From IMG/VR virus record IMGVR_UViG_3300044981_000214: a stretch of 64,000 bases of DNA. One strand, written 5' to 3'. Of this stretch, positions 2,942-54,153 are shown piece after piece (position 1 is the first letter of the stretch; each line of letters begins with the position of its first letter). The notes under the pieces were generated by a model. That model did not search any database and had not been told where the DNA came from. It worked only from the letters and a program-made list of their open reading frames with translations. This DNA comes from a virus (lineage: Duplodnaviria; Caudoviricetes). Position numbers and translations under genes: made by a program.

Positions 2942-2957
2942 GATCGCTACAGCGATC
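2942..2957. promoter_or_regulatory. palindromic motif GATCGC-N4-GCGATC, copy 1
   Basis: GATCGCTACAGCGATC, intergenic, upstream of TATGCT (2969-2974) and ORF 3019. Confidence 0.7.
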
Positions 2958-3018
2958 ACAAGGTTAAGTATGCTATTCTAGATACGCCTCCTTCCCCTAT
3001 CCCGAGGTCTCAACCCCG

Positions 3019-4008
3019 ATGGCTAATATCAATCCCCTCACACTTACTAGTGCCGTCCAGGTTGGTGCAGGCATATATGAATTGATTCTGACCAATTGGG
3101 GTAATCTTGGTACTGCTGCTGAGCCAAACAATGGGTCGATTATTTACCCCTCATTACCGGGCAACCAGGTAACTCTAGCTATTACTCAAAACCTGAGTGC
3201 GTACAGTTTCCCGCCCCCTCAAGGCATGTATGCATTAGCTATCGCTCCACGATCCGATATAGATCGTTGCATAATCAACTACATTAGCCAACCCCAAGCA
3301 GCACCGAGTTTAACTGTCCCGCCACCATTACCCGGTAGTACATTTGCCACGGGTTTTGTTCAGAATGGCGGCATCCTAGAAACGGAACAGGTGTTAAGTA
3401 TCAATAGTCCTCTAATTGGACAGCAAGTAGGCCCATTAGTGATTCGGGCACATCCGTCGACCTTTTTCGGTGATACGTATGTTCAGACAACTACTGGTTC
3501 GTCATTAGCATTCGGAACTAATTCTGGCGTGTTCCTAGGCGGTTTTCCATTTCCGCCTGCAGCCAAGAACATATTTCAGATACCGCAGTTACGATTGCTA
3601 ATGTATACAAGTAGCAAGGCGCCCCTACCACCAACTATTCGTGCCCCTGCAATTTGGGGCTTCTCTGAAGACGTTTCTGGTAATACGACTGAGAAACTGA
3701 TCCGTATTCTGCCTATAAGCGGTAGGACGCAAATTGTGGTTAGTGTTCAGAGCGTCAGTGGTACGTCATTCACGGTAAGACTGACAGGCATGGTCTATCT
3801 TGGAAATAATCCTGCTGCAGGGAACATAGAAATCCCTCTCTTCCCGACTACGACAATAGCTGGATCTGCATCACAGAACATGACTATTTGTTCAAGCGAT
3901 ATCCCTAGTGGCATAACATTCTTATTGATATACATGGAACCTGCACCAGCTGGCGGTGGAGGTAGCGGTATTGGCAATTTCATAATCTCCGCCCAAGATA
4001 TTGGCTAA
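3019..4008 (+). CDS. beta-rich putative structural protein
   Basis: 329 aa, low charge, beta-strand pattern, heads the spike gene cluster. Confidence 0.55.
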   Translation: MANINPLTLTSAVQVGAGIYELILTNWGNLGTAAEPNNGSIIYPSLPGNQVTLAITQNLSAYSFPPPQGMYALAIAPRSDIDRCIINYISQPQAAPSLTVPPPLPGSTFATGFVQNGGILETEQVLSINSPLIGQQVGPLVIRAHPSTFFGDTYVQTTTGSSLAFGTNSGVFLGGFPFPPAAKNIFQIPQLRLLMYTSSKAPLPPTIRAPAIWGFSEDVSGNTTEKLIRILPISGRTQIVVSVQSVSGTSFTVRLTGMVYLGNNPAAGNIEIPLFPTTTIAGSASQNMTICSSDIPSGITFLLIYMEPAPAGGGGSGIGNFIISAQDIG

Positions 4009-4020
4009 AGGTGTAATCCA

Positions 4021-5451
4021 ATGGCACTACCACCTAGCTGTAATCCTGCGATTCTGTCGATCTCGGCAGGGACAACTAATGCTACAGGGCCGCAAGTTGT
4101 TTTTAGTAACTCCAATGGTGTAAGTTTTGGCGTCAGCGGTAATACGGTCACTGCTAGCGTTATTGGAGGCGGAGGTGATACTGACTTAGCTGTTAGTGCT
4201 AACGGTAACAGCGTATCAGCCGGTACACTGGTATTTTCCAATAGCAACAACGTATCGTTCGGAATGGCAGGCAGTACGATCACTGCCTCAGCAACCGCTT
4301 CACAATCGACTGCGCCGAGCGCTCTTGCAGCAGGGACGCAGACAGCTACAAGCGGGACTGTGGTATTTGCAAATTCCAACGGGCTTACGTTTGGAATGAG
4401 CGGAAGCACCCAAATCACTGGGAGCTATTCTCAATCTACCTCTCCTGGTGGGTTAGCGGCGGGCACACAAACGGCGACGTCCGGGACAGTCGTATTTAGC
4501 AATTCCAACAATATCTCATTTGGCATGAGCAACAGCAGTGTTATTACTGCGAGCTTCTCCCAGACGGTTCAACCAGGCGTTACAGCGATCGGCGTCAGCA
4601 ACATAGGCAATACGGCAGGTAATACCGGCACGACACAAGGAACTTACGTATTTGCAGGTGCAGGTGGAGTAACGCTCAGCCAAAGTACAGCAGCCGGATC
4701 ACTAGCAACCTTATCAATCAGTATGGTAGGTCCTGCCGCTATCAGTGCGGCCGGCGCCTCTGCTTCAAGCGGTACAGTTGTATTCAGCAACAGCAACAAC
4801 ATTTCGTTCGGCATGAATGGCAACACTGTTACAGCAAGTGCGAGCGATTTCACGCACTCGTTCCTCTATCCAGCAGGTCAATGGCCCCTGCAACTTACAA
4901 CACAAAACGGCCAGAATTCATTGGTACTGCACGCTATAACTGCGGAACCAGTAGCATTTTCATTGTTCGCACAACGTGTGCTCTGGTCTGGTACATCTAA
5001 CTCAACAGCTACGATTAGCTATACTTTCCAAGTAGGCGTGTATACCAAGAGCATCTCATCAATGTCACTAGTAATGTCGACATCATTTAACGGGTCAATC
5101 AATCACTCGGGCAATATTAACAACAGTTTGTACGCCAGTGAACGTGTTGTGACTGTGGCATGGACAAGTACACTTAACCGCGGCGATTACTATATTGGGC
5201 TACTGTCCAGTACAACATTTTCGAGTCAGAACGTTAACGCGCTAGAAAATATTCTAGGCAGCCAGCCGTCTACTAACTTTGTAGGCGTGCTGGGCAACGT
5301 AACTTCGGCAAGTGTTCAGGAAGTATTGGGCCTAGGCCACTATAGCTTAACGACCGGCGCAATGCCTTCTTCTATAGCCTTTTCCGATATTATCGGCACA
5401 GGTGCTAATGATAGGCGTGCGCCGATATATTACTTTGGCCAGACAGTCTAA
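4021..5451 (+). CDS. spike/fibre protein (stalk repeats plus C-terminal head)
   Basis: 5 copies of AGTQTATSGTVVFSNSNxxxFGM..TAS plus one B-type repeat; ~200-aa head with NRGDYYIG. Confidence 0.75.
   Translation: MALPPSCNPAILSISAGTTNATGPQVVFSNSNGVSFGVSGNTVTASVIGGGGDTDLAVSANGNSVSAGTLVFSNSNNVSFGMAGSTITASATASQSTAPSALAAGTQTATSGTVVFANSNGLTFGMSGSTQITGSYSQSTSPGGLAAGTQTATSGTVVFSNSNNISFGMSNSSVITASFSQTVQPGVTAIGVSNIGNTAGNTGTTQGTYVFAGAGGVTLSQSTAAGSLATLSISMVGPAAISAAGASASSGTVVFSNSNNISFGMNGNTVTASASDFTHSFLYPAGQWPLQLTTQNGQNSLVLHAITAEPVAFSLFAQRVLWSGTSNSTATISYTFQVGVYTKSISSMSLVMSTSFNGSINHSGNINNSLYASERVVTVAWTSTLNRGDYYIGLLSSTTFSSQNVNALENILGSQPSTNFVGVLGNVTSASVQEVLGLGHYSLTTGAMPSSIAFSDIIGTGANDRRAPIYYFGQTV
4521..4725 (+). 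repeat. 205-bp segment shared with 16021-16225
   Basis: collinear at offset 11500; 41-nt perfect stretch (4654-4694 = 16154-16194); differences mostly at third codon positions. Confidence 0.85.
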
Positions 5452-5454
5452 GAT

Positions 5455-8394
5455 TTAGACTTGAATGTAGATTCGCGGTGCTGCTGATGATACGGATGAG
5501 TAGACGAATGGGTTGGGTAAAGCGCCGGTTTGGCTTCCCGTTGCATTTACACCTGCAGTAATCTCGGCTGCCGTCGGAGTCGATGTACCAAAATCAATAT
5601 TGGGCATGATACCTGCGGGGGTGATTGTTCGCAAGGTTGGCTGAGGTGCAGGATTGCCCTGCACGACACCTGCTATCCAGTATACGCCTGGTGTTAATGC
5701 TGTACTAAGTCCAGTAATCGTCAATACACCCGGTACTCCAGGATCTCCAGCGGCTACACTAAATGTACCCGCGTCTAGTAACAATGCGCCCGGGCGTCCC
5801 GTTCCGTCATCGGCATAAATGCCGGCGCGATAAAGCGCCCCTGCACCACCCCCCGTAGTGACCTCGCAAGCTATAGCCTGAACGGTTACAGCATTAGGTA
5901 CCCAAAAAGGTGTAGCCCTCAGTGCACCGTTATTAAGGGTGATGCTAGTAGAGACACTTCCAAAGTTAGGTGCAGCATACCATCTACCGTGCTGCCAATT
6001 GGACGAGTACGGGCCTTGACCAAGAACCTGTCCAATACCTGCAGTTGTTGTCAGAAGCTGCTGCCAGCCGCCTGATAGACCGGTTTGGTTGATAAAAGCA
6101 GTCCCAGCACCTCGGACAATAGCAACTGATCCGATTGGAGCGGCGACGGCTGGAGCTGACGCATAAGAGTATATTGCGATGTCGTTGCCGTTACCTCCAA
6201 TTTGTAAGGGCGCATGAGGGTACCCAAAGTTTGTCGATACGCCACCGCCAAACATTGGGATCGTGCTGTCTGAGCATACATTATCAACAGCAACAGGTAT
6301 AGTTACCGATGTCCGGCCATCAATCTCCCAAGATATGCACGCTGTCATCACTCCAGCGGTGACAGCATGGAAAGTATTCGCGCTTATGTCAGCATAGTTG
6401 CACAGTGTGCCACCTCCAACAGATGCCGTAGCAACACCTATATTGAAATCAGTACACTCATTTCCACGAATGATTGCAGTATCCATGTTCCGAGCTACTG
6501 ACAAATCCAAGAAAATACCGTACTGTGTTGTTGACGCTACGCCAACAAACTCCCATACAACAGTATTGTCAGTGATCGATGATCCAGTTCCTGTCGGTCC
6601 ACCTGAACCTGCACTAGTACCGGGAGCTACTTGATAGACATTACCTCCGTTGTGAACTTCAGTAGGTGTCGATGTGGTGCCTAGGGCATAGACTGTGTTT
6701 GGCGCCCATAACGAGCCGGTCGAGCCAGCGCCAACGTAGTTCCAAACCACAGTGTTGTCGACGATGCCAGAGCCAGTACCTGTCGGGCCTCCGGCACCTG
6801 CGCTAGTACCTGCAATTACTTGATAGACATTGCCACCGTTGGTAACGCGTGTAGCGTTGTTGTAGAACACAGATTCTGCATAAACTGTGTTAGCCTGCCA
6901 CGCTGTTGCTCCAATCGCGAATACGCGATTCCGTTCAGCACGGGCAGTTCCAGACGCTTGCATCACGATACCGTGTGCAGTAGTCGAATTAACGTATATA
7001 GAACAATCACTCACACATAGATTGTCACTTGCTTGTCCACTCTGATTCCCTGCTATTAGCACCGCCTGAGGAGATGTAGCTGTGTCAGCTAATATAACCT
7101 GACAGCGGGAGAACCATACATCTTGCACATTACCTGAAATTTCGATCGGCATCTGTTCGGTTATTGCACTATCAGAGCAATTGATTGAACAGCTATCTAC
7201 TACGATATTAGCGGCATTGTTTACCAAGACACCGCCATTCACGAACACGTCGCGCATCCATCCATTAACGACAAAGTCAATACCGCTTGCGTTATTAGAA
7301 CCTGCAAACTGTACGGCCCAATTCCCAGGAGTACTGTCTACATAACCATGGTCGATAATGATCTCGCCATCTAACTGACTACATTCGACGTGTAATCCGC
7401 CTGCATTGTTGGTGATGTAAAAGTCTCGAACGCTAGAACGATGATCAGTTCCAGCGTCGCCCCATGATATTCCCATCCATTTGTTGTCGTGGATATATAC
7501 GTTGTTGACTATGCAATCGGTACTGTTCTGGAAGAACACGATTCCCGACCCTGTACCGTTACGTAATTCAACATTGCGTACTGTCACACGTTGGCAGTTA
7601 TTCAAAAACACATCGTCGCGATGGTTATTATCAGGTATAGATTGATTTATTTTGTTGCCGTCGTAGGTCAGATTTTCTATGATAAAATCTGAGATCGCAG
7701 TACCCGCTTGATTGCTAAACCCTCGCACACTTGCACGCTGATTAGCCGCTGTTATAATAACGACACCTTCACGGCTCTGTCCAAGCCATGATACGCCCGT
7801 CATCATCTTGATCGTTTGGAAAGCCCCTAGATATTCAGATACCAGATAGGTTCCGTTCGGGAAGTAGACAGTTCCACCGCCCGCTGCGAAGGCTGCAGCA
7901 CCGGCATTGTTTACAGCAATAGTGTCATCAACAATACCCCCACCAGTTGCACCGTATGACCTTACGTTGAAGAACGGCATCTTGGTGACTGCTGCACCAA
8001 GAGGAATAAATTTGGAGGTTGCGGTTGAATACTTAACGCCGATTGTTGCGCCTGGCGGGATAGGCGTTAATTCACTATTGGCTAACGTAAACTGATTTGC
8101 AGCAGCAGAAAGGGTTTGATGTACTAAATTGATATTGAAACTCGTCGAGATATTAGTGATCCAGACAATCTGTCCATCAATAAATCCAGTCGAGTTCAAT
8201 CCAGACAAAGTAGCGTCAGCGGTTAGGTTCTGGTAAATAGTAGAAGTAGTAACCAATCCTGTTGGGTTGTAGTCATTGACAGCCCCGTTGATTGATGCGG
8301 GCGTAATCGAGGCTGCAGCAGAAAGCGCTGTACTTATTTGAAATACCGCTCCGCCGACGTTGTTTAGCTGTCCAATGGTTACTGGTTTTGTCAT
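5455..8394 (-). CDS. tailspike-like depolymerase (pectate-lyase-like right-handed beta-helix) with CBM-like repeats and spike head
   Basis: FNVRSYGATGGGIVDDT..GGGTVYFPNGTYLV entry motif; beta-helix repeats; two WxxNTVY..NGGNVYQV..GPTGTGS..DNTVVW modules; C-terminal LTPGVYWIA head. Confidence 0.8.
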   Translation of the reverse strand: MTKPVTIGQLNNVGGAVFQISTALSAAASITPASINGAVNDYNPTGLVTTSTIYQNLTADATLSGLNSTGFIDGQIVWITNISTSFNINLVHQTLSAAANQFTLANSELTPIPPGATIGVKYSTATSKFIPLGAAVTKMPFFNVRSYGATGGGIVDDTIAVNNAGAAAFAAGGGTVYFPNGTYLVSEYLGAFQTIKMMTGVSWLGQSREGVVIITAANQRASVRGFSNQAGTAISDFIIENLTYDGNKINQSIPDNNHRDDVFLNNCQRVTVRNVELRNGTGSGIVFFQNSTDCIVNNVYIHDNKWMGISWGDAGTDHRSSVRDFYITNNAGGLHVECSQLDGEIIIDHGYVDSTPGNWAVQFAGSNNASGIDFVVNGWMRDVFVNGGVLVNNAANIVVDSCSINCSDSAITEQMPIEISGNVQDVWFSRCQVILADTATSPQAVLIAGNQSGQASDNLCVSDCSIYVNSTTAHGIVMQASGTARAERNRVFAIGATAWQANTVYAESVFYNNATRVTNGGNVYQVIAGTSAGAGGPTGTGSGIVDNTVVWNYVGAGSTGSLWAPNTVYALGTTSTPTEVHNGGNVYQVAPGTSAGSGGPTGTGSSITDNTVVWEFVGVASTTQYGIFLDLSVARNMDTAIIRGNECTDFNIGVATASVGGGTLCNYADISANTFHAVTAGVMTACISWEIDGRTSVTIPVAVDNVCSDSTIPMFGGGVSTNFGYPHAPLQIGGNGNDIAIYSYASAPAVAAPIGSVAIVRGAGTAFINQTGLSGGWQQLLTTTAGIGQVLGQGPYSSNWQHGRWYAAPNFGSVSTSITLNNGALRATPFWVPNAVTVQAIACEVTTGGGAGALYRAGIYADDGTGRPGALLLDAGTFSVAAGDPGVPGVLTITGLSTALTPGVYWIAGVVQGNPAPQPTLRTITPAGIMPNIDFGTSTPTAAEITAGVNATGSQTGALPNPFVYSSVSSAAPRIYIQV

Positions 8395-8409
8395 AATCAA
8401 TATCCTATC

Positions 8410-9561
8410 TTATGATGCGAAAATAAAGAACCGTAGGACATCCCCTGTACTCAGCGTACCGCTGGGAACAACACGGAATGCAGTCAATGCGCGATTCGCC
8501 GTCCCCAACGGCATATCTAGAATCGGCATTAACGAGACTCCAGCTAACCCTGCAAACACGTCGTAATTGGTATTGGCAACGGCTGCCATAGTAACGCTGA
8601 AATCGGTCTCGCCTCCAGTTGCCGTATAGCCAACTACTTTTTGGATACTTGGTTGATAAAACGAGGCTGTAATTACACTGTTGTTGCTCATCCCAAACGT
8701 GACACTATTTGAGTTGCTCAATACTATTGTGCCCGCTGTACCTGTTTGAGTCCCTGCGGCGATACCTCCAAAGGCTGCACTGAATGTTATTGTAGAGGCA
8801 CTATAGCCAACCGAGACGTTGTTGCTATTAGACAGTACTACTGCGCCAGTTGACTGTGTTGCGGTGCCTACAATCATTGCGATACCAGATGCAGTACCGC
8901 CTACAGTCTGCACGGACGCTGTGATTGTAGAACCGACGATTCCAAACGTAACTCCGCCACCATTGGAAAAGAAAACAGCACCGTTAGAGACTTCAGCGTT
9001 GCTAGCGGAAATGGCTTTGATTCCATCAACGGTAGCTGTGACTACGCTGCTATTGTTCATTCCAAATGAGACACCGCTTGCATTCGAGAAAAGAATAGTT
9101 CCTGCAGTACCTGTCTGTGTACCTGCTGCGATACCTCCGAGCGCAGCACTAGCTGTGACAACGCTGTTATTGGACATCCCGAATGAGATGTTATTGCTAT
9201 TGCTAAAGACTACTGTGCCGGTCTGCGCTACTTGCGTCCCAGCACTTATAGCTACCTGCCCTGTACCAGAATTACCGGGTTGTAGAATATACGGTGTAAG
9301 GGTTCCTAAACTGCCCGGCGGTTCTGCGTCCTCAATCGTATGCCAATGTTCAACATAGACCTCTACCGAGGACCCGCCAGAAGCTAGACGAGTGACTGTA
9401 ACGTTGTTCTGATCTGCAATGACAAAGAAGCCTCCCACCTGAGGAAGGACAAGATGTGGCTTTACCGGTACACCGTGTACGTTTAGCAGGTGTGGCAGAC
9501 TTGCTGGAACCCCAACAGCTAGACCTGTGAACGTCAGAACGTTCTTGAGTACAGTCGCCAT
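8410..9561 (-). CDS. spike/fibre protein (LKN-FTGL-LPH adaptor plus 5 stalk repeats)
   Basis: N-terminal VLKNVLTFTGL..LPHLLNV..VEHWHTIE domain shared with 24544, 29834 and 31703; stalk repeats. Confidence 0.75.
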   Translation of the reverse strand: MATVLKNVLTFTGLAVGVPASLPHLLNVHGVPVKPHLVLPQVGGFFVIADQNNVTVTRLASGGSSVEVYVEHWHTIEDAEPPGSLGTLTPYILQPGNSGTGQVAISAGTQVAQTGTVVFSNSNNISFGMSNNSVVTASAALGGIAAGTQTGTAGTILFSNASGVSFGMNNSSVVTATVDGIKAISASNAEVSNGAVFFSNGGGVTFGIVGSTITASVQTVGGTASGIAMIVGTATQSTGAVVLSNSNNVSVGYSASTITFSAAFGGIAAGTQTGTAGTIVLSNSNSVTFGMSNNSVITASFYQPSIQKVVGYTATGGETDFSVTMAAVANTNYDVFAGLAGVSLMPILDMPLGTANRALTAFRVVPSGTLSTGDVLRFFIFAS

Positions 9562-9607: not shown

Positions 9608-9641
9608 ATCCACTAGGATCGCTGTAGCGATCCTAATGGAT
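9608..9641. promoter_or_regulatory. palindromic motif copy 2 (extended inverted repeat)
   Basis: core GATCGCTGTAGCGATC at 9617-9632, arms extend to about 15 bp with one mismatch; upstream of TGtTAAACT on the minus strand. Confidence 0.7.
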
Positions 9642-11044: not shown

Positions 11045-12565
11045 ATGCAGATTTCTACTCCTCTACCTCGTCCAACTAATGAAGGTTGCGCGTTCATAGG
11101 CGGATATTTCGATGCCGAAGGTTGCTTGTCGTTGCACGAAATTCCATTACGGACTTGCACTGAGTGTGGATGGGGCTTGGCTATTGGATTTGGTCAAACA
11201 AATCCAAGTGTACTTAAATATATGCACAGTTTTTACGGTGGGCGTCTAAGTCCGGTCAAAAAGGATCCGCCCCCTAATTGGCGACGACAAACTGTCTGGC
11301 AGTTAAGAAAATTTAGGGGTGTATGCTGTTTTTTACAGGACATTCTTCCTTATCTCGGCGAGAAACGTGCACAAGTAGAAGCAGTACTACAACGATTTAA
11401 TGCAAGGATGACTAGAGAAGCTGGAGACGCTTTACAAGCATTATTAACGGTAGAAAAAAAATTAGAGCTTCAATACTTACCTGTTGAATTAAGTACCATT
11501 TGCCAAGCCCCACCTAGTTTAACTGAACGCGCATATGCCGCAGGATTTTTCGACGGTGACGGTTCGATTGAAGTACGACGCAAGGCCTCTACATGGCACT
11601 TGACGGTGACCTTTAATCAGACACGTAAAGAAGGCATCCTAAAATTAGCCGCTAATTACTTAGGCTATAGCGGATTCAAAATAAAGGTTAAGCCTAGAAG
11701 GAACCAACTCTCGTGGCGAATTTCGGTTCGAGAAACCGTCCTAACTTTCTTACGGGATATTCAACCGTTCTCGATAGAAAAAAAGCCGCAGATCGATTTA
11801 ATCCTTACGGATTATTCACCATTAATGTCTGATTTTGAAGGCCTTGTCCTAAACATTAAGTTAGAGATGCTACGTCAAACAATTGAGTCTTTCCCCTGTA
11901 CTGTATCTCTGACAACGGCAATGGAAAGAGTCTTAGCCATTATTCAAGATGCAAATATAACTACAATTAACCAAATAGCCGCTAGATTCATAGATGGAAC
12001 CGAAGCGCTCCCAGTTTTGCTAAGTCAACTTATAGTTGACCAAAAAATATGGCGTAAAGGTAAGGGGAAAAAGATCTATTACGGCGTGGCAACCGCTACA
12101 ACAGATAACTGGATCAAGGTCAATCGTAAGGATCCCACCGCAACAATAACCATAGAGGGAGAGACTAAATCTATAAAGGAGTGGGCAATGGTAACCGGAC
12201 TAGATTACCAACGAGTTCATACACGGCTAAAAAAGGGGCTTACACCAAAGGAGGCTGTTTTCTCCCCGCTTCGTGGAACAGGGCTAGCCAATTTATATGA
12301 AGGCGCAGCTATATTCAAATATAGGCCTAGACGAGTTCACAATGGAGGTGTAACCGTTTCTGTACCTAGTGATATCGTACGGAGAATAAAGCAAGATAAT
12401 TGGGAGCTTGACCGAGTGTACATTCAAACTGAAGGCTACCCAAAAATAAGAGCAAGATTGGAAATTGATGCCAAATACTCTAGTGCGCGAATTTACATTG
12501 GGAAACGTATACAACACCTACCAGCTAATCGCAAATTGACATTTAACCTGACACAAGTAACCTAA
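11045..12565 (+). CDS. double-motif LAGLIDADG homing endonuclease with C-terminal DNA-binding extension
   Basis: FIGGYFDAEGC and YAAGFFDGDGS motifs; C-terminal TIEGETKSIKEWA..RLKKG..EA module. Confidence 0.85.
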   Translation: MQISTPLPRPTNEGCAFIGGYFDAEGCLSLHEIPLRTCTECGWGLAIGFGQTNPSVLKYMHSFYGGRLSPVKKDPPPNWRRQTVWQLRKFRGVCCFLQDILPYLGEKRAQVEAVLQRFNARMTREAGDALQALLTVEKKLELQYLPVELSTICQAPPSLTERAYAAGFFDGDGSIEVRRKASTWHLTVTFNQTRKEGILKLAANYLGYSGFKIKVKPRRNQLSWRISVRETVLTFLRDIQPFSIEKKPQIDLILTDYSPLMSDFEGLVLNIKLEMLRQTIESFPCTVSLTTAMERVLAIIQDANITTINQIAARFIDGTEALPVLLSQLIVDQKIWRKGKGKKIYYGVATATTDNWIKVNRKDPTATITIEGETKSIKEWAMVTGLDYQRVHTRLKKGLTPKEAVFSPLRGTGLANLYEGAAIFKYRPRRVHNGGVTVSVPSDIVRRIKQDNWELDRVYIQTEGYPKIRARLEIDAKYSSARIYIGKRIQHLPANRKLTFNLTQVT

Positions 12566-13701: not shown

Positions 13702-13717
13702 GATCGCTAGAGCGATC
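13702..13717. promoter_or_regulatory. palindromic motif copy 3
   Basis: GATCGCTAGAGCGATC upstream of TAGTAT (13734-13739) and leaderless ATG 13746. Confidence 0.7.
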
Positions 13718-13745
13718 TAACCTACAAACGCGGTAGTATATAGGT

Positions 13746-25292: not shown

Positions 25293-25511
25293 CTAGGGCT
25301 TGGACGCGCTCTTATCCACAGGCTGAATAGCAGATCGCCCCGTTATTTGTGTTGCTGTATGCATCACTGCATTGCCACTAACCAAGGTTCCAAATATTAT
25401 GGCTACTGTTGACGCCCATTCAGTCCCTGAAATCTTACCTAGATATGTAAGAACACAAGCAAGAATCAGAATCAGTACCCCCAGGGCATTGTGATTATCC
25501 AGTAATCTCAT
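25293..25511 (-). CDS. small two-TM protein (holin-like)
   Basis: 72 aa, two TM helices around GKISGTEW. Confidence 0.55.
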   Translation of the reverse strand: MRLLDNHNALGVLILILACVLTYLGKISGTEWASTVAIIFGTLVSGNAVMHTATQITGRSAIQPVDKSASKP

Positions 25512-25540
25512 GTCGCTAACTATAGCAGTTTAGATTCGCT

Positions 25541-25819
25541 TCAGCGATTCAATAGTTTAACTAGATCAGAGAGCCACCGCTTCTTAAGCGTGATTACTTG
25601 CGCTTCAGTGGCTAGATTAGCATCGTAGGGTTTAAGCAGTCTTTCTATCTCTTGATAGTCTTGCCTGGTCTTAGCAGCACGTAATTGGCTGGCAGTAAGT
25701 TCCAAAAGGGTAGACACCCGATCAATTTCCCGCCCTAAAAAATCGGCGTCCGTCTCGACCTCAGTCTCTCTGACTTCCACTAATATTGCTAAATGTTTTT
25801 CTGGCTCCGACACGGGCAC
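25541..25819 (-). CDS. hypothetical protein
   Basis: 92-aa helical ORF. Confidence 0.4.
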   Translation of the reverse strand: MPVSEPEKHLAILVEVRETEVETDADFLGREIDRVSTLLELTASQLRAAKTRQDYQEIERLLKPYDANLATEAQVITLKKRWLSDLVKLLNR

Positions 25820-29116: not shown

Positions 29117-29150
29117 CCGTTAATTTTAACATAGATCGCTACACAGATCG

Positions 29151-31006: not shown

Positions 31007-31028
31007 GTTGATCGCTACAGCGATCAAC
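31007..31028. promoter_or_regulatory. palindromic motif copy 4
   Basis: GTTGATCGCTACAGCGATCAAC directly upstream of TGgTACTCT on the minus strand. Confidence 0.7.
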
Positions 31029-31702: not shown

Positions 31703-32905
31703 TTACACGGGTGACAGAAATACGTTTGCGTCCCCAATAGCCCCAGGCGATCCTGCAGCACCTGCGCCTATACCTGCACCACCTGAACCCCCAGTTACGA
31801 GAAACAGTCCGCTACCGCTACGCACAGATGCGAGGCTGAGGATAGTACCTCCTCCTCCGCCACCGCCGCCACCACCATCTCCACCAGTACCCGATGCTGC
31901 AGCGCCATTACCGCCTAGTGCCTCTACTGTGCCATTGTTAATAAATATGGCAGCGTGCCAGATAAGGACACCGCCTCCGCTACCTCCACCTCCACCATTT
32001 ACCCCTGCATTGTTAGACCCCCCACCACCGCCTCCTGCACCGCCGCCAATCGTAAATACTTGAGGCTGTCCACTAGGAATCTGCAGACCGAATAAGAAGC
32101 CCGTTAAGATTGGAATTAGATAACTAGCACCACCGTTATTCACAGTCGTAGGGTATGTGCCGCCATTACCTCCCAAATGCGATCCGTCAGCTTGCCCTCC
32201 TGCACCACCTGTTGCCGAGGCATCTTGAAGCGTTGCTGATGAAGAAACATTGGTTCCATTCGCCCCTGCCCCCACACCAGTATGTCCATTACCGCCAGCA
32301 ACACCGAAGCCATAAGTACCTGTTGCCGTTGCTAGCCCTCCGGTCGCACCGATAGCATTGTTACTGCTGCATAATAACAAGCCATTGTTGGTAAAAAGGC
32401 CATTGACGAAACCTCTAAACCCTGCAGCATTGACAGTTATCCCGCCCGATATAGAACTACCCCCAGCAAGAAAAATGTCTTTATTCAGGGTATATGTACT
32501 CCCTAATAAAGTAGCAAATGGAAAGGTGTTAACACCATTGAACACAGCAACACCATTATGTCCATCACCGTATGCAATCGATGAGACTACGCCTGATAAA
32601 GGGAAACTTTGCGCCCCAACAAAAGGCTGCGTAGCCAACTTCTTATTCTGTACGCCCCCGAATGCGCGTTCGAAAGAGTGCCAACTCTCGCATAGTACAG
32701 CTACAGTGAGCGAGGTACTGGTGGTGTTTGTAGCGGTTACGTTAAATGCGTCAGCCGACAATGTGGCCGAATTACCAATACTAGTAATCAACGAATCCGG
32801 CACCAATGGCCGCCCAAACTGATCCTGAAGCCCGTGTGGGAGTGATGCAGTACTACCAGTTGCGATACCTACGAAGTTAACAATGTTCTTTAGCTGCGCA
32901 GGCAT
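31703..32905 (-). CDS. glycine-rich spike/fibre protein with LKN adaptor
   Basis: QLKNIVNF..LPHGL..CESWHSFE adaptor; GGGGGG-rich C-terminal half. Confidence 0.7.
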   Translation of the reverse strand: MPAQLKNIVNFVGIATGSTASLPHGLQDQFGRPLVPDSLITSIGNSATLSADAFNVTATNTTSTSLTVAVLCESWHSFERAFGGVQNKKLATQPFVGAQSFPLSGVVSSIAYGDGHNGVAVFNGVNTFPFATLLGSTYTLNKDIFLAGGSSISGGITVNAAGFRGFVNGLFTNNGLLLCSSNNAIGATGGLATATGTYGFGVAGGNGHTGVGAGANGTNVSSSATLQDASATGGAGGQADGSHLGGNGGTYPTTVNNGGASYLIPILTGFLFGLQIPSGQPQVFTIGGGAGGGGGGSNNAGVNGGGGGSGGGVLIWHAAIFINNGTVEALGGNGAAASGTGGDGGGGGGGGGGTILSLASVRSGSGLFLVTGGSGGAGIGAGAAGSPGAIGDANVFLSPV

Positions 32906-35410: not shown

Positions 35411-36601
35411 TCACCACTCCATCTTCCAAGCCGCTCGACGCTTAGCCATAAGCTGCTTGTATCTTTCGTATGCGCTTGTCTTCATAGGAGCAAACGATAG
35501 AGATCGACACCAGTAGTCGTTCTTCAACAGCACACGGCACAGTCTGCGCCAAGACGGCATATCAGTAGATCCAGTATCTCCTGGCAGTTCGTCCGCGATT
35601 ACTTGCCCATGATTCTCATACCATTTTCTCCATACGCTAAACTTGTTCCTATAGTGTTCAGCTGTAGTACGTGGAATAGTACTCAACAGGAACTTGGTAA
35701 AGGACTCCCACGTGTGTCCTGGAGGTTTAGTAATTGCCCGGTTACCTAGAATGTTCCCCTTCTCTTTACAGTACAAAGAGGCGCTATTAGCGCCTGCTAC
35801 ACGGGCTGCTACAGCACCCCAAGTGGCAGGCTCAAGGATCTGATAGAGCCAGAGTCCGCGCCGTTGTTCGTCTCCGTACGGCTCGCAAACACGCATTTGT
35901 GAGACCTTTAGCCCTGCCTTGAACATCAAGTCGTATATCGTGTTATAGGGCTTTCCTTTGGCAAGGTACCCCCAAATATCATTTACTTGCCAGTCGTATA
36001 TTGGATACGCAGCGTAGCTACCTTTTCCATAATACGTTGTCCATCGCAAGTCATCTAGCATTGCTTTTTCTTGGGTTATCGCACGCCAACGGTTAAGGCT
36101 CTCTGACGTACGTAATCCGAGCAGTCCTATTGCAGGCGTATCTCTCGCGTACCAATTACCAAATTCGACTACAAACTCTTCGAATGTCATGTTGTGGTGG
36201 TAGAACGGGAGCTTTTCTTTATTTGCCTGTTCTGGTAGAGATCTGACCCAAGCAAGCTGCTTATCAGGATCCCAACAGGTCCATTCGGGCGCAATCATGC
36301 TACACGCATTAGTAGTACGCAGTGGTAACGCTACCCAATACGGGATTATATTTTCAGCGTACCGTTTAAACATGTCGGATACGAACGTTATTGTTCTGTT
36401 GAATTGCGCTTCCCAGTCAATAAACAACACCCCAAATTTACGTTGTCGTAGTTTAGCTTCTTCTGCTACTAGATGAAGAAGTACGGCGCTGTCCTTGCCT
36501 CCACTGAATCCAACATAGATAGCCTCAAATCTATCAAAAATAAGACTGATCCGCTCCTTAGCTGCTTCATAAACGTTGTGACTTAGATATCTACGATTCA
36601 T
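35411..36601 (-). CDS. ibrA: IbrA/YbdN-like PAPS-reductase family protein (DUF3440)
   Basis: FSGGKDS, FIDWEAQ, GLRTSESLNRW, YPIYDW, MRVCEPYGDEQR, SWRRLC..LKNDYWC. Confidence 0.9.
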   Translation of the reverse strand: MNRRYLSHNVYEAAKERISLIFDRFEAIYVGFSGGKDSAVLLHLVAEEAKLRQRKFGVLFIDWEAQFNRTITFVSDMFKRYAENIIPYWVALPLRTTNACSMIAPEWTCWDPDKQLAWVRSLPEQANKEKLPFYHHNMTFEEFVVEFGNWYARDTPAIGLLGLRTSESLNRWRAITQEKAMLDDLRWTTYYGKGSYAAYPIYDWQVNDIWGYLAKGKPYNTIYDLMFKAGLKVSQMRVCEPYGDEQRRGLWLYQILEPATWGAVAARVAGANSASLYCKEKGNILGNRAITKPPGHTWESFTKFLLSTIPRTTAEHYRNKFSVWRKWYENHGQVIADELPGDTGSTDMPSWRRLCRVLLKNDYWCRSLSFAPMKTSAYERYKQLMAKRRAAWKMEW

Positions 36602-37761
36602 TTATGCTCTGTCCACTTCCGACGTGTATCCTTAGGTGCACGGCCCATGTTCCCGATTGGAGTTCCGAGAGCTTCATCTAATGACCATCCGTTATGCATT
36701 CGACTCTTCACACGACTGTAGTCAATTCCAGCAAGTTCAGCCCATTCATTTAGGGTCTTTGTCTCCCCTTCTAACGTGAAAAATTTAGTATTTCGCCGAT
36801 TCGTATTCTGCTCCTGATAGGTAGCCCACCTAAAATTGCCCGGTTCATAGTGCCCATCATTGTTAGGGAATCGATCGAAAGTCAGATCGCGGGATGCTGG
36901 CATTCCAACATCAGCGATAAAACGATCGAAATCCATCCAGGCTGTGTGCACCTTGATGCCTCTACCACCATAATCAGCATAGCGGTCATGGCTAGGATCA
37001 GTGCAACGGCTGACCATTTGATACCACCGTTTATAGACTAGCTCACGGGTAACAGGTGCCGAACTGCGAGGCAAAACAGCTTGTTCGGCCGTCCAATTAT
37101 ACTTGGTTATTCGTTGGTAGATTCGCTGTTGAGGCACCCCAGTCCGTTCGGATATCTCACCTATGGTTAGATTTTCGTCGTGAAAAGCATATCTGACCGT
37201 ATCACGAAGATTTCTACCTTGTTCCTTTGAAGTCGCCCAACGAACATTTCCAGGTTCGTAATTTCCTGCAGGATTAGGGAATCGATCTAAAGAGTGCAAC
37301 TTAGACGGTCTAAGTCCTATATCCTCGATAAAAGCCTCAAAGCTATTTCGCCAACGATCACATACTATGACGCCCTTAGCGCCATACCATTTGTAGCGTG
37401 CATCTTTGACCCTATAGCAACGATTCAGCATAGCCTGCCAGGCTTTGTATTCTGGGGTAGTGGTACCGTTCTTTGCGTGACCGTGTTTAGCGTTTAATTC
37501 ATTCTTCGCACACACCATCTCGGAATGTATACAACCGCACGATGTGGTTGCACCACTGCGTAGGCTAGAAGGCATGACAAGGACATATCCTCCTTCTGGG
37601 CAACTACATTGGCAGACTAATTTAGCTTGACCGTATTCATTCCGGTTCAAAGCTACCCCCTTGACAGTAAGCCGAACGAATTCACAGCCAATTAGCTTTC
37701 GTAAACTCAGGCTGGGGTCAGGGTCCAAGTCAGGTTGTGATGAAAATTTGGTTGCGCGCAA
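36598..37761 (-). CDS. HNH-type homing endonuclease with duplicated domain
   Basis: two copies of W..M..RC..YG.RGI.V..W..F..D.G..DRFPN..GxYEPGNxRWAT. Confidence 0.8.
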   Translation of the reverse strand: MRATKFSSQPDLDPDPSLSLRKLIGCEFVRLTVKGVALNRNEYGQAKLVCQCSCPEGGYVLVMPSSLRSGATTSCGCIHSEMVCAKNELNAKHGHAKNGTTTPEYKAWQAMLNRCYRVKDARYKWYGAKGVIVCDRWRNSFEAFIEDIGLRPSKLHSLDRFPNPAGNYEPGNVRWATSKEQGRNLRDTVRYAFHDENLTIGEISERTGVPQQRIYQRITKYNWTAEQAVLPRSSAPVTRELVYKRWYQMVSRCTDPSHDRYADYGGRGIKVHTAWMDFDRFIADVGMPASRDLTFDRFPNNDGHYEPGNFRWATYQEQNTNRRNTKFFTLEGETKTLNEWAELAGIDYSRVKSRMHNGWSLDEALGTPIGNMGRAPKDTRRKWTEHK

Positions 37762-37887: not shown

Positions 37888-38643
37888 TTAGACAACCGTG
37901 CGCTTAATCAATCCGTACTTATACAACTTGACGTCAGCGAAGTTGAGTGCCGTCGAACCATCCGATGCAGCCTGGATGATCTTAACGGCGGCTTCAGGCT
38001 GGAAAGTGCCGGTATACCCGAGATTTTCGCGCTCATGCACTGGCAGCACGAGGGCTACGCGGTCACGAGGCGACGGCAGACCGAGCTGTGCGTATTCGAA
38101 CGATGTGTTCGTCGAACCGACATAGTAGCCGTGCCCCTGGGGGAAGTCCTGAAGGACGCCCTGGGTGTAGAACTTGGCATTGTATTCATACTGGAAGAAT
38201 ACAACACGGTCCATCTGGAACAGGGTGGCCAACAGCGGCGGGTCAGACAGTGCCCACGGAGTCACCTGACCGTTGGTGACGAGAGGCGCAGTCAAACCGG
38301 TCGCGAACGAGTCGACCAAGGTTGGGGCTGTGTTCGAGGTGTCAGGACCACGCATGATGCGAACGATCTGGATACCCCAGCCGTAAACTAGCATTTCCCA
38401 GTCCTTGGGGAGACCGGAGTCGCCGTTACGCGGGATGTTCGTATCAACGCGAGTCTGTACACGAGTACCGCCAGGAATCGACTGGCTACGACCCGAGCTG
38501 TACGCCTGGAGAGGCGTGGTCTGGCCGTTGGTGAACTGGACGCAACCGTAAAGCTTGTCGTCGATCCAGTCTGCCAGGGCGATCGTGGAACCGTCCGGCA
38601 GGGTGAGGGTTGTGGTTGATGGTGCTACGCCTACTGCTCCCAT
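37888..38643 (-). CDS. putative major capsid protein, vertical single jelly-roll type
   Basis: 251 aa beta-rich; DTNIPRNGDSGLPKDWEMLVYG resembles the TN..G.LP...F.V motif of single jelly-roll MCPs; strong GC3 bias, purine-rich RBS, own terminator. Confidence 0.65.
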   Translation of the reverse strand: MGAVGVAPSTTTLTLPDGSTIALADWIDDKLYGCVQFTNGQTTPLQAYSSGRSQSIPGGTRVQTRVDTNIPRNGDSGLPKDWEMLVYGWGIQIVRIMRGPDTSNTAPTLVDSFATGLTAPLVTNGQVTPWALSDPPLLATLFQMDRVVFFQYEYNAKFYTQGVLQDFPQGHGYYVGSTNTSFEYAQLGLPSPRDRVALVLPVHERENLGYTGTFQPEAAVKIIQAASDGSTALNFADVKLYKYGLIKRTVV

Positions 38644-38750
38644 TGTCTTTTTCCTTTTCCTTGACTTGTTTTGAGTCTCAGCCGCTCAACGCGACCTAGT
38701 TTGATTACTGCAGCGATTAGAATTAATCACTGCAGATATTCATTTAACGA

Positions 38751-48568: not shown

Positions 48569-48584
48569 GATCGCCCTAGCGATC
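48569..48584. promoter_or_regulatory. palindromic motif copy 7
   Basis: GATCGCCCTAGCGATC, 3 nt before TGaTATGCT. Confidence 0.7.
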
Positions 48585-48603
48585 CTATGATATGCTAATA
48601 ACC

Positions 48604-48915
48604 ATGCGTAGACGCAGTCGATTAGGTAGCCCCGAGTACATACATACACTGCGGGCCAAGACTGCACAGCGATCGATGAAAGAGGGCCTGAGTCTAGCTG
48701 AAAAGAGACTTGCGGCCCGGCAATGCACAAGTGCCTATATGAATTTAGTGCAGGCGTGGCAGGGGTACGGCCAGGTAATGGCTGAAAACAAGGGCGGTGG
48801 TAGCGAATGGATTCCGCATTCGGATTTTATGGACACTAGCGGCAAGTTTGTTGATATGTGCATCAGGGACCTCGAACACGGACTAGGTAGGCGCACTAGA
48901 CGCAGTCGTCGGTGA
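48604..48915 (+). CDS. small basic protein with LG-Arg tags at both ends
   Basis: MRRRSRLG-SP ... EHGLG-RRTRRSRR; leaderless ATG 48604. Confidence 0.65.
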   Translation: MRRRSRLGSPEYIHTLRAKTAQRSMKEGLSLAEKRLAARQCTSAYMNLVQAWQGYGQVMAENKGGGSEWIPHSDFMDTSGKFVDMCIRDLEHGLGRRTRRSRR

Positions 48916-50120: not shown

Positions 50121-50124
50121 ATAT

Positions 50125-50917: not shown

Positions 50918-50918
50918 T

Positions 50919-51326: not shown

Positions 51327-51328
51327 TG

Positions 51329-51721
51329 CTATACTTTAGTCAAATCACACACCCCGGTGTAATCTACGCAGTCAAATACCGCAAACGGTGCACCAGTCGA
51401 GCCGTGGTTCTCGCCGAGAACTACACGAAATACTGGACGTGATGAAGAATCTTGAGCCTTCCATCGCGCCATGCTTGGAACTTTACGTGACTCACTCCGA
51501 AATTGATCTTCCGCCGTCCAATCTTTCTCTAACCCGCGCCAAATATCGACACTGTCATTGTCGATCGCGACAGCCTCAGTAAATGCTACTTGTGCGTTAC
51601 ATGCCTCAGTGCCCTTGGTGATCGAAATAAGAGTCCCGGCTCGAATACCAACGGTATTGTATAGCTTACCGATTACCTGATCACCGACTTTGGCTTCGGT
51701 TCCATCTTTATAATGTGGCAT
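51329..51721 (-). CDS. hypothetical phage protein
   Basis: MPHYKDGTEAKVGDQV..G.L.SIT.G.EACN pattern. Confidence 0.55.
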   Translation of the reverse strand: MPHYKDGTEAKVGDQVIGKLYNTVGIRAGTLISITKGTEACNAQVAFTEAVAIDNDSVDIWRGLEKDWTAEDQFRSESRKVPSMARWKAQDSSSRPVFRVVLGENHGSTGAPFAVFDCVDYTGVCDLTKV

Positions 51722-54090
51722 TACTCGCCTCCTTGTCCTTCGCCTTCTATTTCTGGATCACTATCATCTAATTCAACGTCTTCATGGAGGATTCTTACAC
51801 ACTCGTCTTTGAAGGCCTGTTCACCGTCGGGGAACAGTACATCGATCAAGTCTGCAAACCTTGAATCGTCAAATAACGTGAACGCAGGAATTACCAAGTT
51901 ATTGGAAATTACCGCTTCCACGCCCTTAAGGATAGCATCAACAGCCTCCGACGGTGTCAGACCGTTCTTAACACCGATACGTAACGTCTTGACGCTCTCC
52001 CATGCTGCGCCGAACATCTTTAGATTTGCAATCTCATTCGCGTTTTGTGCAGGAGTCGGCTCAGAAGGAACACCCTCAATACGAACTGGTGTAGGACCCT
52101 CAGCGACTACGACTTCTGGGGCTGGTGTACGTCCAGCTGGTTTCTTGCGCTGCGGTACAGCCGTGGGAATCACTTCGGCTTGCGGTTGCGGGCCGTTAAA
52201 GCCGTTACCTTGGCTCACAGGCGGTGGCGGTGACCACGTCTGCTGAGACTGAGCCCGAATAGCTTCTGCTTGAACATGAGCTTCGGCAGCTGCACGCTGT
52301 GCAACGGCCTGTGCCTCTGCCTGCTTGACTTTCGATTCAGAAATAACCTGGTCACGCTTCATAGCAATGAAGCGTTCAGCCGTGTCTTTGACGCCGCTCA
52401 TTCCTTCTTGTAGAAGCCTAACGGTAGGGCTATCACCACCACCGCCGCTCATCTGCATTACCTGTTCAGCTGCGCCGCGGTACATCTGAACGATGCCGTC
52501 GACACTAGAAACTAGGTTACGCATGAACGTATCCTGACCAGAACTAGACTCCTTCATCATTTGCGCAAGCTGCAATGGATTTAGCATGAAATTGCTCAGA
52601 CGATTAGTCTGATCCTGGTTCATGCGTGCCATCTCCTTCATTTGCTCGCCGCTCTGTCGTGATGTTTCCCGTAGGACCTCAATCATTGGATCAGGGCCTT
52701 TATTGTTATTGGCTTCTGCCATTTGCTGCATACGGCGCTCAAGGACGTCAGCCTGTTCCTTGATCTGACGCTGTAGCATTTCATCTCGCCGTTCACGCTC
52801 ATAGCGCTCACGCTCTGCATTACGTTCATTGCGTTCAAGTTCTAGGCGCCGTTCGGTCTCAGCTCGTTCACGCTCACGCTCCTGACGATCGTGTTCACGC
52901 TGTTTGTCAGCTTCGTAACGTAGCCGATCCTGTTCAGCCCGCAATTGTCGAACTTCATCTGACTCACCGCGATTATTATTTTGTGACATAGCTGCAAGCT
53001 GGTCACGCAATGCAGCTACCTGCTGGTCACTAGCAGCACGCATCTGTGCCATGTGTGCTTCCATAAGCTGCTGTTGCATCTTCAATTGTTCAGCCTGAGC
53101 CGATTCACGCAAGCGCTGTGTCTCCTCACGAAGCCTACGGACCTCGTCGTCCTCGGGCTTGTGCCGTGCTTCAGCCATACGCCGCATTTCTTCTTGCATA
53201 GCCCGCAGCTGTTCAGCCTGCTGCTGCTGCATTTGTTGAATCTGCTGCTGCTGCTGCGCTTGCATACGCTCTAGTTGCGCTTTGTACTCGTTGTCTTTTT
53301 GAAGCAATTCAGCAGCACGAAGCTTGGCTTCTAGTTCCTTTGTCTTCTGCTCTTCAGCCTCACGTTCCTTGCGCTGCCTTGACGTGCTGTAATCGTCGTC
53401 GTTGCCGCGTACACGGTCACGTAGCTCGTCACGGGTGCGAGTATAAGATTGCTGGTAGCCGTACTGGGGCGGTGGATAAAAACTAGGCGCTGGACCACTA
53501 AAGCCCCATGGCGACGGGCCCTGTGGAGCCTGCTGCCAAGGCATAGTTGGCTGTGCGACCGGCTGTAATATCTGCGGTTGATTCTGCTGCTGTTGATAAG
53601 AAGGCAGTGTAATACCGCTTTGTGGTGGCGTACCGTAACCCAAAGCATTGCCGCTTGGAGGCCAACTGGTGTTGTTTACCGCCTGAGTTAAAGGCTGGAC
53701 GTTGGCAGGCACCAATTGGGGGCCCGTATTATTCGTTGGAGTGTTTCCCATTACAGCTGCCTCAGAAGCGTTAGGAGGAACGCGCTCGGGATAAACCCGA
53801 GGGTCAAAAAGGAATTCCCAGGTCATTTCACTGGGCGGGTTCTTGCTGTCTAATAGGGTCGCACGATAGTGACCGCCACCAGACCATTTGTTTACTAGCC
53901 ACTGCTCAAAACTCAATATCTCATCGCGGGTCCAGCCCGCACCAGGGGCTCCACCGTCTTTGCTGGGCAGCTCAATAGGCTGTTGAACACTGCCTTTGAG
54001 CTTTACAACGCGAAGCAGCAGCGGCTCCGCCATGGATTGCAATTTTGCGGGATCGAACGCCTGATGTCTGTCTTTGTTAGATGTTGCCAT
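51721..54090 (-). CDS. large Gln/Pro-rich coiled-coil protein
   Basis: 789 aa: N-terminal globular domain, P/Q-rich linker, long E/R/Q coiled coil, C-terminal helical domain. Confidence 0.7.
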   Translation of the reverse strand: MATSNKDRHQAFDPAKLQSMAEPLLLRVVKLKGSVQQPIELPSKDGGAPGAGWTRDEILSFEQWLVNKWSGGGHYRATLLDSKNPPSEMTWEFLFDPRVYPERVPPNASEAAVMGNTPTNNTGPQLVPANVQPLTQAVNNTSWPPSGNALGYGTPPQSGITLPSYQQQQNQPQILQPVAQPTMPWQQAPQGPSPWGFSGPAPSFYPPPQYGYQQSYTRTRDELRDRVRGNDDDYSTSRQRKEREAEEQKTKELEAKLRAAELLQKDNEYKAQLERMQAQQQQQIQQMQQQQAEQLRAMQEEMRRMAEARHKPEDDEVRRLREETQRLRESAQAEQLKMQQQLMEAHMAQMRAASDQQVAALRDQLAAMSQNNNRGESDEVRQLRAEQDRLRYEADKQREHDRQERERERAETERRLELERNERNAERERYERERRDEMLQRQIKEQADVLERRMQQMAEANNNKGPDPMIEVLRETSRQSGEQMKEMARMNQDQTNRLSNFMLNPLQLAQMMKESSSGQDTFMRNLVSSVDGIVQMYRGAAEQVMQMSGGGGDSPTVRLLQEGMSGVKDTAERFIAMKRDQVISESKVKQAEAQAVAQRAAAEAHVQAEAIRAQSQQTWSPPPPVSQGNGFNGPQPQAEVIPTAVPQRKKPAGRTPAPEVVVAEGPTPVRIEGVPSEPTPAQNANEIANLKMFGAAWESVKTLRIGVKNGLTPSEAVDAILKGVEAVISNNLVIPAFTLFDDSRFADLIDVLFPDGEQAFKDECVRILHEDVELDDSDPEIEGEGQGGE

Positions 54091-54135
54091 ATTTTTTGAT
54101 CCACCTCAATTAGGGTACTTGTAGAGGATCCAAGC

Positions 54136-54153
54136 TGATCGCAACAGCGATCA
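54136..54153. promoter_or_regulatory. palindromic motif copy 8
   Basis: TGATCGCAACAGCGATCA, intergenic, upstream of 54090. Confidence 0.7.

Follow-up and report, generated by a model that had tools for sequence, protein, structure and literature searches.

A promoter-linked palindrome conserved across one clade of uncultured large soil viruses as the putative operator of a dimeric regulator

The palindrome GATCGC-N4-GCGATC recurs through a stretch of viral DNA (IMG/VR record IMGVR_UViG_3300044981_000214; Duplodnaviria; Caudoviricetes; 64,000 nucleotides (nt), hereafter the window), and comparison with related records indicated that it is a conserved DNA word, repeated at intervals of 5-7 kb and located at promoters, in large uncultured soil viruses of a single clade. 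On balance we favour the view that the site, more fully [C/T]GATCGC-N4-GCGATC[G], is the operator of a sequence-specific dimeric regulator, most likely encoded by the viruses, which would co-ordinate about 40 transcription units per ~200-kb genome in this one clade. The bound protein would mainly repress, by occluding RNA polymerase or by blocking its escape, and a single site may serve two divergent promoters.

All eight perfect cores reported in a first-pass annotation of the window were recovered with the same coordinates and spacers, and all eight were intergenic as it had claimed; one further perfect copy (63168), the sole intragenic one, brings the count to nine. The accompanying claim that the motif stands far above chance also held, as 100 dinucleotide-preserving shuffles of the window contained no match and the window's own hexamer counts (27 GATCGC, 29 GCGATC) predict about 0.012 copies. 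When the spacer was scanned over k=0-20, k=4 held all nine copies and every other spacing held 0. Eight of the nine lay outside called genes, compared with a non-coding fraction of 15% (binomial P=2e-6).

Relatives were found by protein-based searches in IMG/VR; at the DNA level, the window had no match in a phage collection, and the exact word GATCGCTACAGCGATC occurred across IMG/VR as singletons only. The nearest relatives are G001 (221 kb), G003 (196 kb) and two fragments, G017 (91 kb) and G014 (95 kb), and further relatives are more distant viruses of 77-138 kb. Median protein identity is about 45% between the window and the others, 55% between G001 and G003, 64% between G003 and G014 and 71% between G003 and G017, values that make the window the outgroup and place G014 within the clade. 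A search of related genomes, which the first-pass annotation had recommended, returned the same arms at 20-44 copies per record: 36 in G001, 44 in G003 and 20 in G017, with identical arms also in two G001-like fragments; reversed-pattern controls gave none. Together with the nine copies of the window, the copies in G001, G003 and G017 make up the 109 sites of our four-genome counts. Although G001 (61% GC) is rich in GATCGC-type words, its own hexamer counts predict less than one palindrome, and no spacing other than N4 yielded more than 4 copies in it. The density is 141-225 per Mb in the viruses; three GC-rich bacterial genomes that harbour related viral DNA have 3-7.5 copies per Mb, and these bacterial copies have coding-type spacers.

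Equal frequency in coding sequence, which had been named as damaging to an operator reading, was not what was seen; the copies are mostly intergenic in the relatives as well: 25/36 in G001, 29/44 in G003 and 15/20 in G017, where non-coding DNA makes up 7-10%. These intergenic counts are underestimates, because our own codon-model gene caller over-extends some starts. Position relative to genes is also kept at about 75% of sites, in that orthologues of the G003 palindrome genes carry a perfect palindrome in 21/28 cases in G001, 14/19 in G017 and 6/8 in the window, and six of the eight intergenic window sites have counterparts in relatives. The arms are unchanged between the window, at 49% GC, and relatives at 61-62% GC, whereas the spacers track genome composition, being TACA-like in the window and KCGM-like in the GC-rich relatives. 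Since the arms are invariant and the spacers follow composition, it is the sequence that is conserved, not a fold.

To place the sites relative to promoters, all transcription starts were taken from -10/start-codon geometry. Leaderless genes, which occur widely in Actinobacteria and Deinococcus-Thermus, are conventionally recognised by a TAnnnT box some 10-12 nt ahead of the start codon (PMC3160421). Across the four genomes, TAnnnT followed after 5-8 nt by an ATG or GTG that opens an open reading frame (ORF) of at least 40 codons was found within 60 nt downstream of 53/109 sites, compared with 3.8% of random positions, and 40 of these 53 boxes were TGn-extended. The promoter association claimed in the first-pass annotation is thereby supported and tied to -10 boxes, and the lack of any relation to transcription starts that would have spoken against it was not seen for the starts implied here. 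In G001, TGnTAnnnT occurs only 80 times on both strands, and 20 of the 80 copies lie no more than 20 nt downstream of a palindrome, mostly as GCGATC-G-TGGTAnnnT and, in 15 of the 20, with a start codon 5-9 nt later. Counting the start codon as +1, the palindrome centre has its mode at -24.5; it falls between -21.5 and -28.5 in 31 of the 53 cases and ranges from -31.5 to -67.5 in the other 22.

In the commonest layout the palindrome abuts the TGn of the extended -10 box of a leaderless gene, spanning about -32 to -17. A second layout runs from a near-consensus TTGACA-N18-TAGCTT promoter over about 11 nt to the palindrome, then to a Shine-Dalgarno sequence and ATG (G001 64137 and 66972; G003 140560 and 143238; G017 22373 and 23155), in some cases with an extra palindrome just upstream of the -35 box. 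One site can also stand 15-17 nt from leaderless starts on both strands, as at G017 52756. Spacer orientation showed no bias relative to the promoter (TCGC 7 vs GCGA 5), and the site is therefore functionally symmetric. Promoters of the form GAAATA-N15/16-CGTW were absent from the window and from the four relatives. The sites of the window are as follows.

2942..2957, unstranded: perfect copy, spacer TACA, between divergent promoters; on the minus side TGTTATCAT at 2930-2922, 7 nt and ATG 2914, the leaderless start of a small basic peptide; on the plus side TGCTATTCT at 2971-2979 and ATG 3019; counterparts before orthologues at G001 89856, G003 119156 and G017 1308.
9617..9632, minus strand: perfect copy; 13 nt on, TGTTAAACT at 9603-9595, then a Shine-Dalgarno-led ATG at 9561 (383 amino acids, aa); the operon runs on into a beta-helix protein (5455-8400); orthologue/paralogue family with palindromes at G001 29429 and 30187 and G003 135132, 58170 and 59106.
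13702..13717, plus strand: perfect copy, with the upstream gene's stop 5 nt before; TAGTAT at 13734-13739, 6 nt, leaderless ATG 13746; no perfect counterpart found in the relatives.
25533..25550, minus strand: GATTCGC-TTCA-GCGATTC, without GATC; 5 nt on, TGCTATAGT, 7 nt, ATG 25511.
29134..29149, minus strand: GATCGCTACACAGATC, two mismatches, touching TATGTT at 29133-29128; ATG 29116.
31010..31025, minus strand: perfect copy; 4 nt on, TGGTACTCT at 31005-30997; ATG 30985, the start of a 397-aa paralogue of the 9561 gene product.
40871..40886, minus strand: perfect copy; 8 nt on, TACTCT at 40862-40857; ATG 40855; heads the operon 39932-40855, 38751-39701, 37888-38643, the last encoding the group's most conserved protein; perfect counterpart before the orthologue at G003 138122, one-base-deleted copy in G001 and G017.
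43925..43940, unstranded: perfect copy in a divergent region; plus-strand gene with ATG 43980; on the minus side TGATACGCT at 43869-43861, 7 nt, ATG 43853; counterparts at G001 66972/67035, G003 140496/140560 and G017 22301/22373.
48569..48584, plus strand: perfect copy; 3 nt on, TGATATGCT at 48588-48596, 7 nt, leaderless ATG 48604, which falls 12 nt within the listed ORF 48592-48915.
54137..54152, unstranded: perfect copy; on one side a minus-strand gene of 789 aa (ATG 54090), on the other the plus-strand operon 54261-57658 with a Fis-like gene and a GH25 lysozyme; counterparts at G001 36936, G003 150093 and G017 30141.
63168..63183, unstranded: ninth perfect copy, spacer GTTT, intragenic in ORF 62895-63443 (minus strand); none at the orthologous G001 position.

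Geometry is less strict in the window, where the gap between palindrome and box is 3-4 nt at 48569 and 31010, 8 nt at 40871 (plain TACTCT), 11-13 nt at 2942 and 9617, 16 nt at 13702 (plain TAGTAT) and 55 nt at 43925. Several copies begin 1-5 nt past a stop codon. The first-pass annotation had placed several copies 2-16 bp upstream of a (TGn)TAnnnT box. At 49% GC the unextended TAnnnT occurs too often for this to be significant, but the TGn-extended form is indeed enriched, with a full TGnTAnnnT no more than 16 nt away at 4/9 window sites vs 3.6% expected per site. The three degenerate copies that it proposed fared differently. The copy at 29134 is real, its two-mismatch palindrome abutting a box that ends 11 nt before the ATG; that at about 25534 is a near-palindrome at a leaderless promoter whose arms lack GATC; and that at 38703, with three mismatches and no promoter context, is unsupported. 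Beyond the palindrome clade, extended -10 boxes with leaderless starts (11-24 per ~85 kb) were also observed in G007, G012, G013 and G016 and are a trait of the viral group at large.

A repeated palindrome between closely packed genes might act as RNA, in the form of a hairpin of 6-7 bp with a role in transcript termination, processing or stability. Folding is feasible (mean free energy about -10 kcal/mol), the copies just past stop codons would suit such a role, and copies in the second layout would be at the 5' end of the mRNA. The pattern of variation indicated otherwise. Among single-mismatch intergenic copies, the ATC of both arms was never altered and changes clustered at arm positions 5-6, and the two-mismatch intergenic copies (n=31) were non-compensatory with one exception (G003 61581), so that arm sequence rather than pairing is conserved. 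Conservation extends beyond GATC to the GC that fills positions 5-6 of the arm, to the flanking C/T and to the inner K..M bases. No other arm sequences forming a palindrome family were found, a T-run follows the palindrome in only 5/109 copies, no Rfam family matches it, and the implied transcription start is downstream of the site in the main class. Because the arms are invariant, T-runs and an Rfam match are wanting and the site precedes the transcript, the element appears to be read as double-stranded DNA, by a two-fold symmetric protein and not as a hairpin. Action only as a hairpin or terminator, which the first-pass annotation had listed as fatal to its proposal, thus found no footing, and an intrinsic terminator or structured RNA was rejected as a class, with compensatory change in one copy only, few U-tracts and no known family; we give an RNA role a probability close to negligible. 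An asymmetric variant, GATCGC-N4-GCGACT, in which one GATC is lost, was present in 13 intergenic copies in G001, G003 and G017 (for example G001 70746 and 105512; G017 18672 and 18772).

The contrast between relatives bears on what the bound protein does. G014 is a closer relative of G003 than is G001, but its 95 kb contain a single palindrome, and none stands before any of its 17 orthologues of G003 palindrome genes. The promoters of these orthologues retain TGnTAnnnT and the leaderless start, with the palindrome replaced by unrelated sequence, a half-site or a decayed remnant, and no substitute motif was found in G014. An apparent replacement palindrome, CCGATC-N7-GATCGG (18 copies), proved to be a CRISPR-like array at the contig end; CGCATC-N9-GATGCG in G007 is likewise a CRISPR-like array, and CGAAC-N8-GTTCG in L067/L068 is a coding repeat. 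The two arrays, at ~93.5-95.0 kb in G014 (L074) and ~25.9-27.3 kb in G007 (L109), hold at least 18 and at least 19 repeats, respectively, of about 36 nt with spacers of 24-38 nt.

In the palindrome-bearing genomes themselves, about half of the extended -10 leaderless promoters are without a site, and promoters with and without a palindrome do not differ in -10 hexamers or in -35 resemblance, the best TTGACA match at palindrome promoters being 2-3 of 6, equal to that at control promoters. For the promoter at window 43853 and its orthologues in the relatives, site and box are 3, 21, 33 or 55 nt apart. Repression is suggested because the core promoters look self-sufficient, the positions of the site are unfixed and the G014 lineage lives without sites; the second layout leans the same way, because a protein bound at such a site would stand in the way of initiation or escape. 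Together, G014, the likeness of promoters with and without sites, the variable gap and the second layout favour an add-on, dispensable and mainly negative regulator, and from these sequence patterns repression seems roughly twice as likely as activation.

As for the protein, three candidate binders encoded in the window had been put forward: a helix-turn-helix (HTH) protein (41374), a ribbon-helix-helix protein and a Fis-like protein. Two of them can be described as follows.

HTH17a, 41374..41646, minus strand: HTH_17 (MerR/excisionase-like) protein, a core gene of the whole viral group.
Fis-like protein, 55591..56094, plus strand: Fis-type HTH below the Pfam cut-off, in an operon preceded by a conserved palindrome.

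None of the three was singled out, as the distribution of the HTH and Fis-like proteins does not follow that of the motif and the ribbon-helix-helix protein has no detectable homologue in G001. HTH17a adjoins a palindrome-bearing intergenic region in all relatives; it is also present in genomes without the dispersed palindrome, and its wing is altered in G014. The Fis-like protein is intact in palindrome-less G014 and is found in distant relatives too. PDB sequence searches with these two proteins gave no matches. In the Fis-like protein, the HTH carries a ~90-aa tail of nearly pure Asp/Glu that is kept in all close relatives.

A better correlate is HTH17b, a 68-aa HTH_17 protein encoded outside the window (G003 4241-4447; Pfam HTH_17, 34 bits), which appears to be MerR/Xis/BldC-like with a winged helix and tracks the motif better than the earlier three candidates. 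It is present in G001, G003, G017, G018 and G019, deleted at the syntenic locus in G014 and absent from 10/12 distant, palindrome-poor relatives, and it belongs to a tight family of 54 metagenomic proteins. Its structural model (predicted local distance difference test score, pLDDT, 84) has as nearest folds DNA-bound BldC, mycobacteriophage Pukovnik Xis, the RacA-DNA complex and SoxR/NmlR. Judged by phyletic correlation and modelled fold, there is about one chance in three that HTH17b is the binder of the palindrome. Beside this gene we observed a candidate replication origin, a 420-520-nt GATC-rich intergenic region with DnaA-box-like TGTGGATA words (G003 4448-4869, L080; G001 202423-202948, L052), which lies between HTH17b and a P-loop ATPase on one side and an SNF2 helicase on the other.

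The same promoters could instead be served by a positive late regulator that recruits or remodels host RNA polymerase where a -35 element is lacking, in the manner of Lpa or MerR, in which case the copies downstream of TTGACA-type promoters would shut off earlier promoters as part of a dual switch. The palindrome does occupy the -35/spacer region, and a centre near -24, ahead of a promoter that lacks a -35 box, suits an activator as well as it suits a repressor; the candidate binders have a MerR-like fold, and several downstream genes are of lysis or virion type (GH25, SLT, beta-helix). Late genes of well-studied phages are moreover positively controlled, and in P1 the activator Lpa binds a 9-bp inverted repeat that is conserved at each of the 11 late promoters (PMC10695390). 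This precedent and the position of the site weigh against mainly negative control, and further points weigh against our account of the regulator: G014 is a 59%-complete fragment, so that loss of the regulator hangs on one syntenic deletion, and several further small genes are also missing there; HTH17b has no match within the window, itself only part of a genome; HTH17b may be a replication or excision factor instead, because it is sited beside replication-type genes (P-loop ATPase, SNF2 helicase) and the GATC-rich, DnaA-box-like region; and G014 and distant relatives also have Dam or a GATC excess. Against activation stand a distance to the -10 box that varies from 0 to 55 nt, core elements no weaker than in palindrome-free promoters and, indirectly, the promoters that G014 retains without sites. 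TGn-extended -10 boxes, such as those found here, need no -35 element in known bacteria. We judge a positive regulator possible but rather unlikely. That a host transcription factor or nucleoid protein binds the site, G014 having lost its copies after a change of host, would agree with a viral binder known as a candidate only and with the retention of HTH17a and the Fis-like protein in G014 without sites. We consider it improbable, given that the same 12 arm bases occur at 49% and at 61-62% GC, probably in different hosts, that the three GC-rich bacterial genomes with related viral DNA show background density and coding-type spacers, and that a virus-encoded HTH gene co-varies with the sites. 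The dimeric-regulator site proposed in the first-pass annotation is accordingly retained in the form of a dispersed, intergenic, promoter-linked and conserved palindrome, with a viral and mainly repressing protein as the putative ligand.

Each arm contains GATC, and the proposed sensitivity to methylation is backed indirectly: a gene for a D12 (Dam-type) methyltransferase is present in each of the four close relatives, GATC is over-represented 2.3-3.9-fold in the GC-rich members, and within the site the GATC core varies least, its ATC being invariant. Since Dam and GATC excess also occur in palindrome-less genomes, this link is not specific to the palindrome, and methylation-dependent binding of the regulator is best described as plausible. 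A stronger version, which we think quite unlikely, would make the operator a methylation-read switch, in which the Dam-type enzyme and replication set the state of about 40 promoters at once and the regulon flips when the incoming, fully methylated genome is replicated; if true, a large virus would thereby possess an epigenetic timer coupled to replication. The paired GATCs might also act without a dedicated regulator, as a methylation-read element whose hemimethylated pairs undergo SeqA-like sequestration, or as replication, partition or packaging sites. A GATC-N8-GATC core on one helical face, the Dam-type methylase genes and a double site near the origin-like, GATC-rich region agree with this; the conservation of positions beyond GATC, the tight coupling to -10 boxes, the retention of Dam in G014, which has lost the sites, and the lack of a ParB_N domain in relatives do not, and we hold it to be very improbable. 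The GATC excess was also seen in G007, G012, G013 and G016 and is thus a group-wide trait, not confined to the palindrome clade.

The element is of a dispersed operator type already known for phage regulators and is a new example, not a new principle. In the Cluster A mycobacteriophage L5, more than 20 copies of a short site, in promoters and short intergenic gaps, are paired with one small phage protein (PMC9283540), and the viruses studied here resemble it in having one short site repeated genome-wide in such positions. The viral layout, with TAnnnT 5-8 nt before the start, is the TA-like signal of leaderless genes; such genes are frequent in Actinobacteria, to which the host of L5 belongs (PMC3160421), L5's own promoters being outside the comparison. 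Unlike the perfect palindrome described here, the L5 site is 13 bp, asymmetric, monomer-bound and orientation-dependent, and an L5-type stoperator was rejected on asymmetry and orientation; the viral sites, moreover, are mostly upstream of the implied start rather than within transcripts, and no lysogeny module is known. P1 is similar in that many dispersed promoters pair a -10 box with an inverted repeat. It differs in that its sites number 11, the repeat measures 9 bp and the activator is obligatory, whereas here 20-44 sites per record have 6-7-bp arms and variable distance, a second class stands downstream of promoters, and the G014 lineage is without sites. A fixed, Lpa-type position agrees with the mode of the centre but not with the 22/53 more distant centres or with the second class.

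The merO dyad of MerR operators, 7-4-7 in the promoter spacer, resembles the palindrome in geometry and position, and HTH17b is predicted to have the MerR/Xis fold shared with its nearest matches. In contrast to MerR systems, there is no -35 box and no over-long 19-20-bp spacer, and HTH17b is without a coiled-coil or effector domain; BldC and Xis, for their part, bind direct repeats, whereas the site here is a palindrome. A MerR-type operator was rejected, as no dyad between -35 and -10 elements at 19-20 bp was found and the TTGACA match was 2-3 of 6. The OB sites of KorB/ParB in IncP plasmids are also dispersed palindromes at variable distance from many promoters; a ParB/KorB site was rejected, as ParB_N was absent in G001, G003, G014 and G017 (0/4) in searches that detected the positive controls. 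The cyanobacterial HIP1 shares the GCGATC word and a Dam-type site, but the element here is bipartite, with fixed spacing, in intergenic and promoter DNA. The HIP1 octamer GCGATCGC does not occur in the window and, although G001 has 80, the bipartite motif is distinct from it and intergenic.

Few downstream genes are nameable. The 9617 operon encodes a fibre-like beta-helix protein of pectate-lyase-like type, and the 54137 operon a GH25 lysozyme that also has a peptidoglycan-binding domain; the others are SLT, NUDIX and domain-of-unknown-function (DUF) proteins in G003. The first-pass description of the targets as late and mostly structural was therefore not established, and a late/structural regulon is plausible. 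For the conserved 251-aa protein of the 40871 operon, the AlphaFold model is all-beta and of low confidence (pLDDT 50) and the structure Atlas yields weak PRD1-P2/P3-type leads only, so a capsid role of this operon is at most tentative. A relative of the 251-aa protein (68% identity) is present in a Gemmatimonadota metagenome-assembled genome, in a 4.74-Mb chromosome (CP070815.1 3,705,222-3,725,923; L113) that is without a palindrome cluster at the locus; this may be a provirus and a clue to the host.

Nearly all genes of these uncultured soil viruses of ~200 kb lack annotation, and the palindrome with its extended -10/leaderless signature offers a sequence-only map of their transcription units. 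The signature defines a co-regulated gene set and corrects start codons, as at 48604, 43853 and 2914, where the leaderless start implied by TGnTAnnnT differs from the longest-ORF start; the small basic peptide gene at 2700-2914 (minus strand) was revealed by such a box. G014 is a natural 'knock-out', and the regulator candidates are few and open to in vitro work that needs no virus culture. Should binding turn out to be sensitive to GATC methylation, these viruses would be a clear-cut example of epigenetic timing across a whole viral genome.

Other observations concern genes of the window. Four proteins share a conserved N-terminal domain of ~95 aa (8410-9561, 24544-25248, 29834-30985 and 31703-32905); two of the four genes have a perfect upstream palindrome (9617 and 31010), the degenerate site at 25533 heads a small gene (25293-25511) directly upstream of 24544-25248, and paralogues in G001 and G003 also have palindromes. 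At 35411-37761, a PAPS-reductase-like protein lies beside a protein that matches PHROG HNH/restriction endonuclease families and also has a sigma-70 region-4 HTH, and a LAGLIDADG endonuclease is encoded at 11045-12565.

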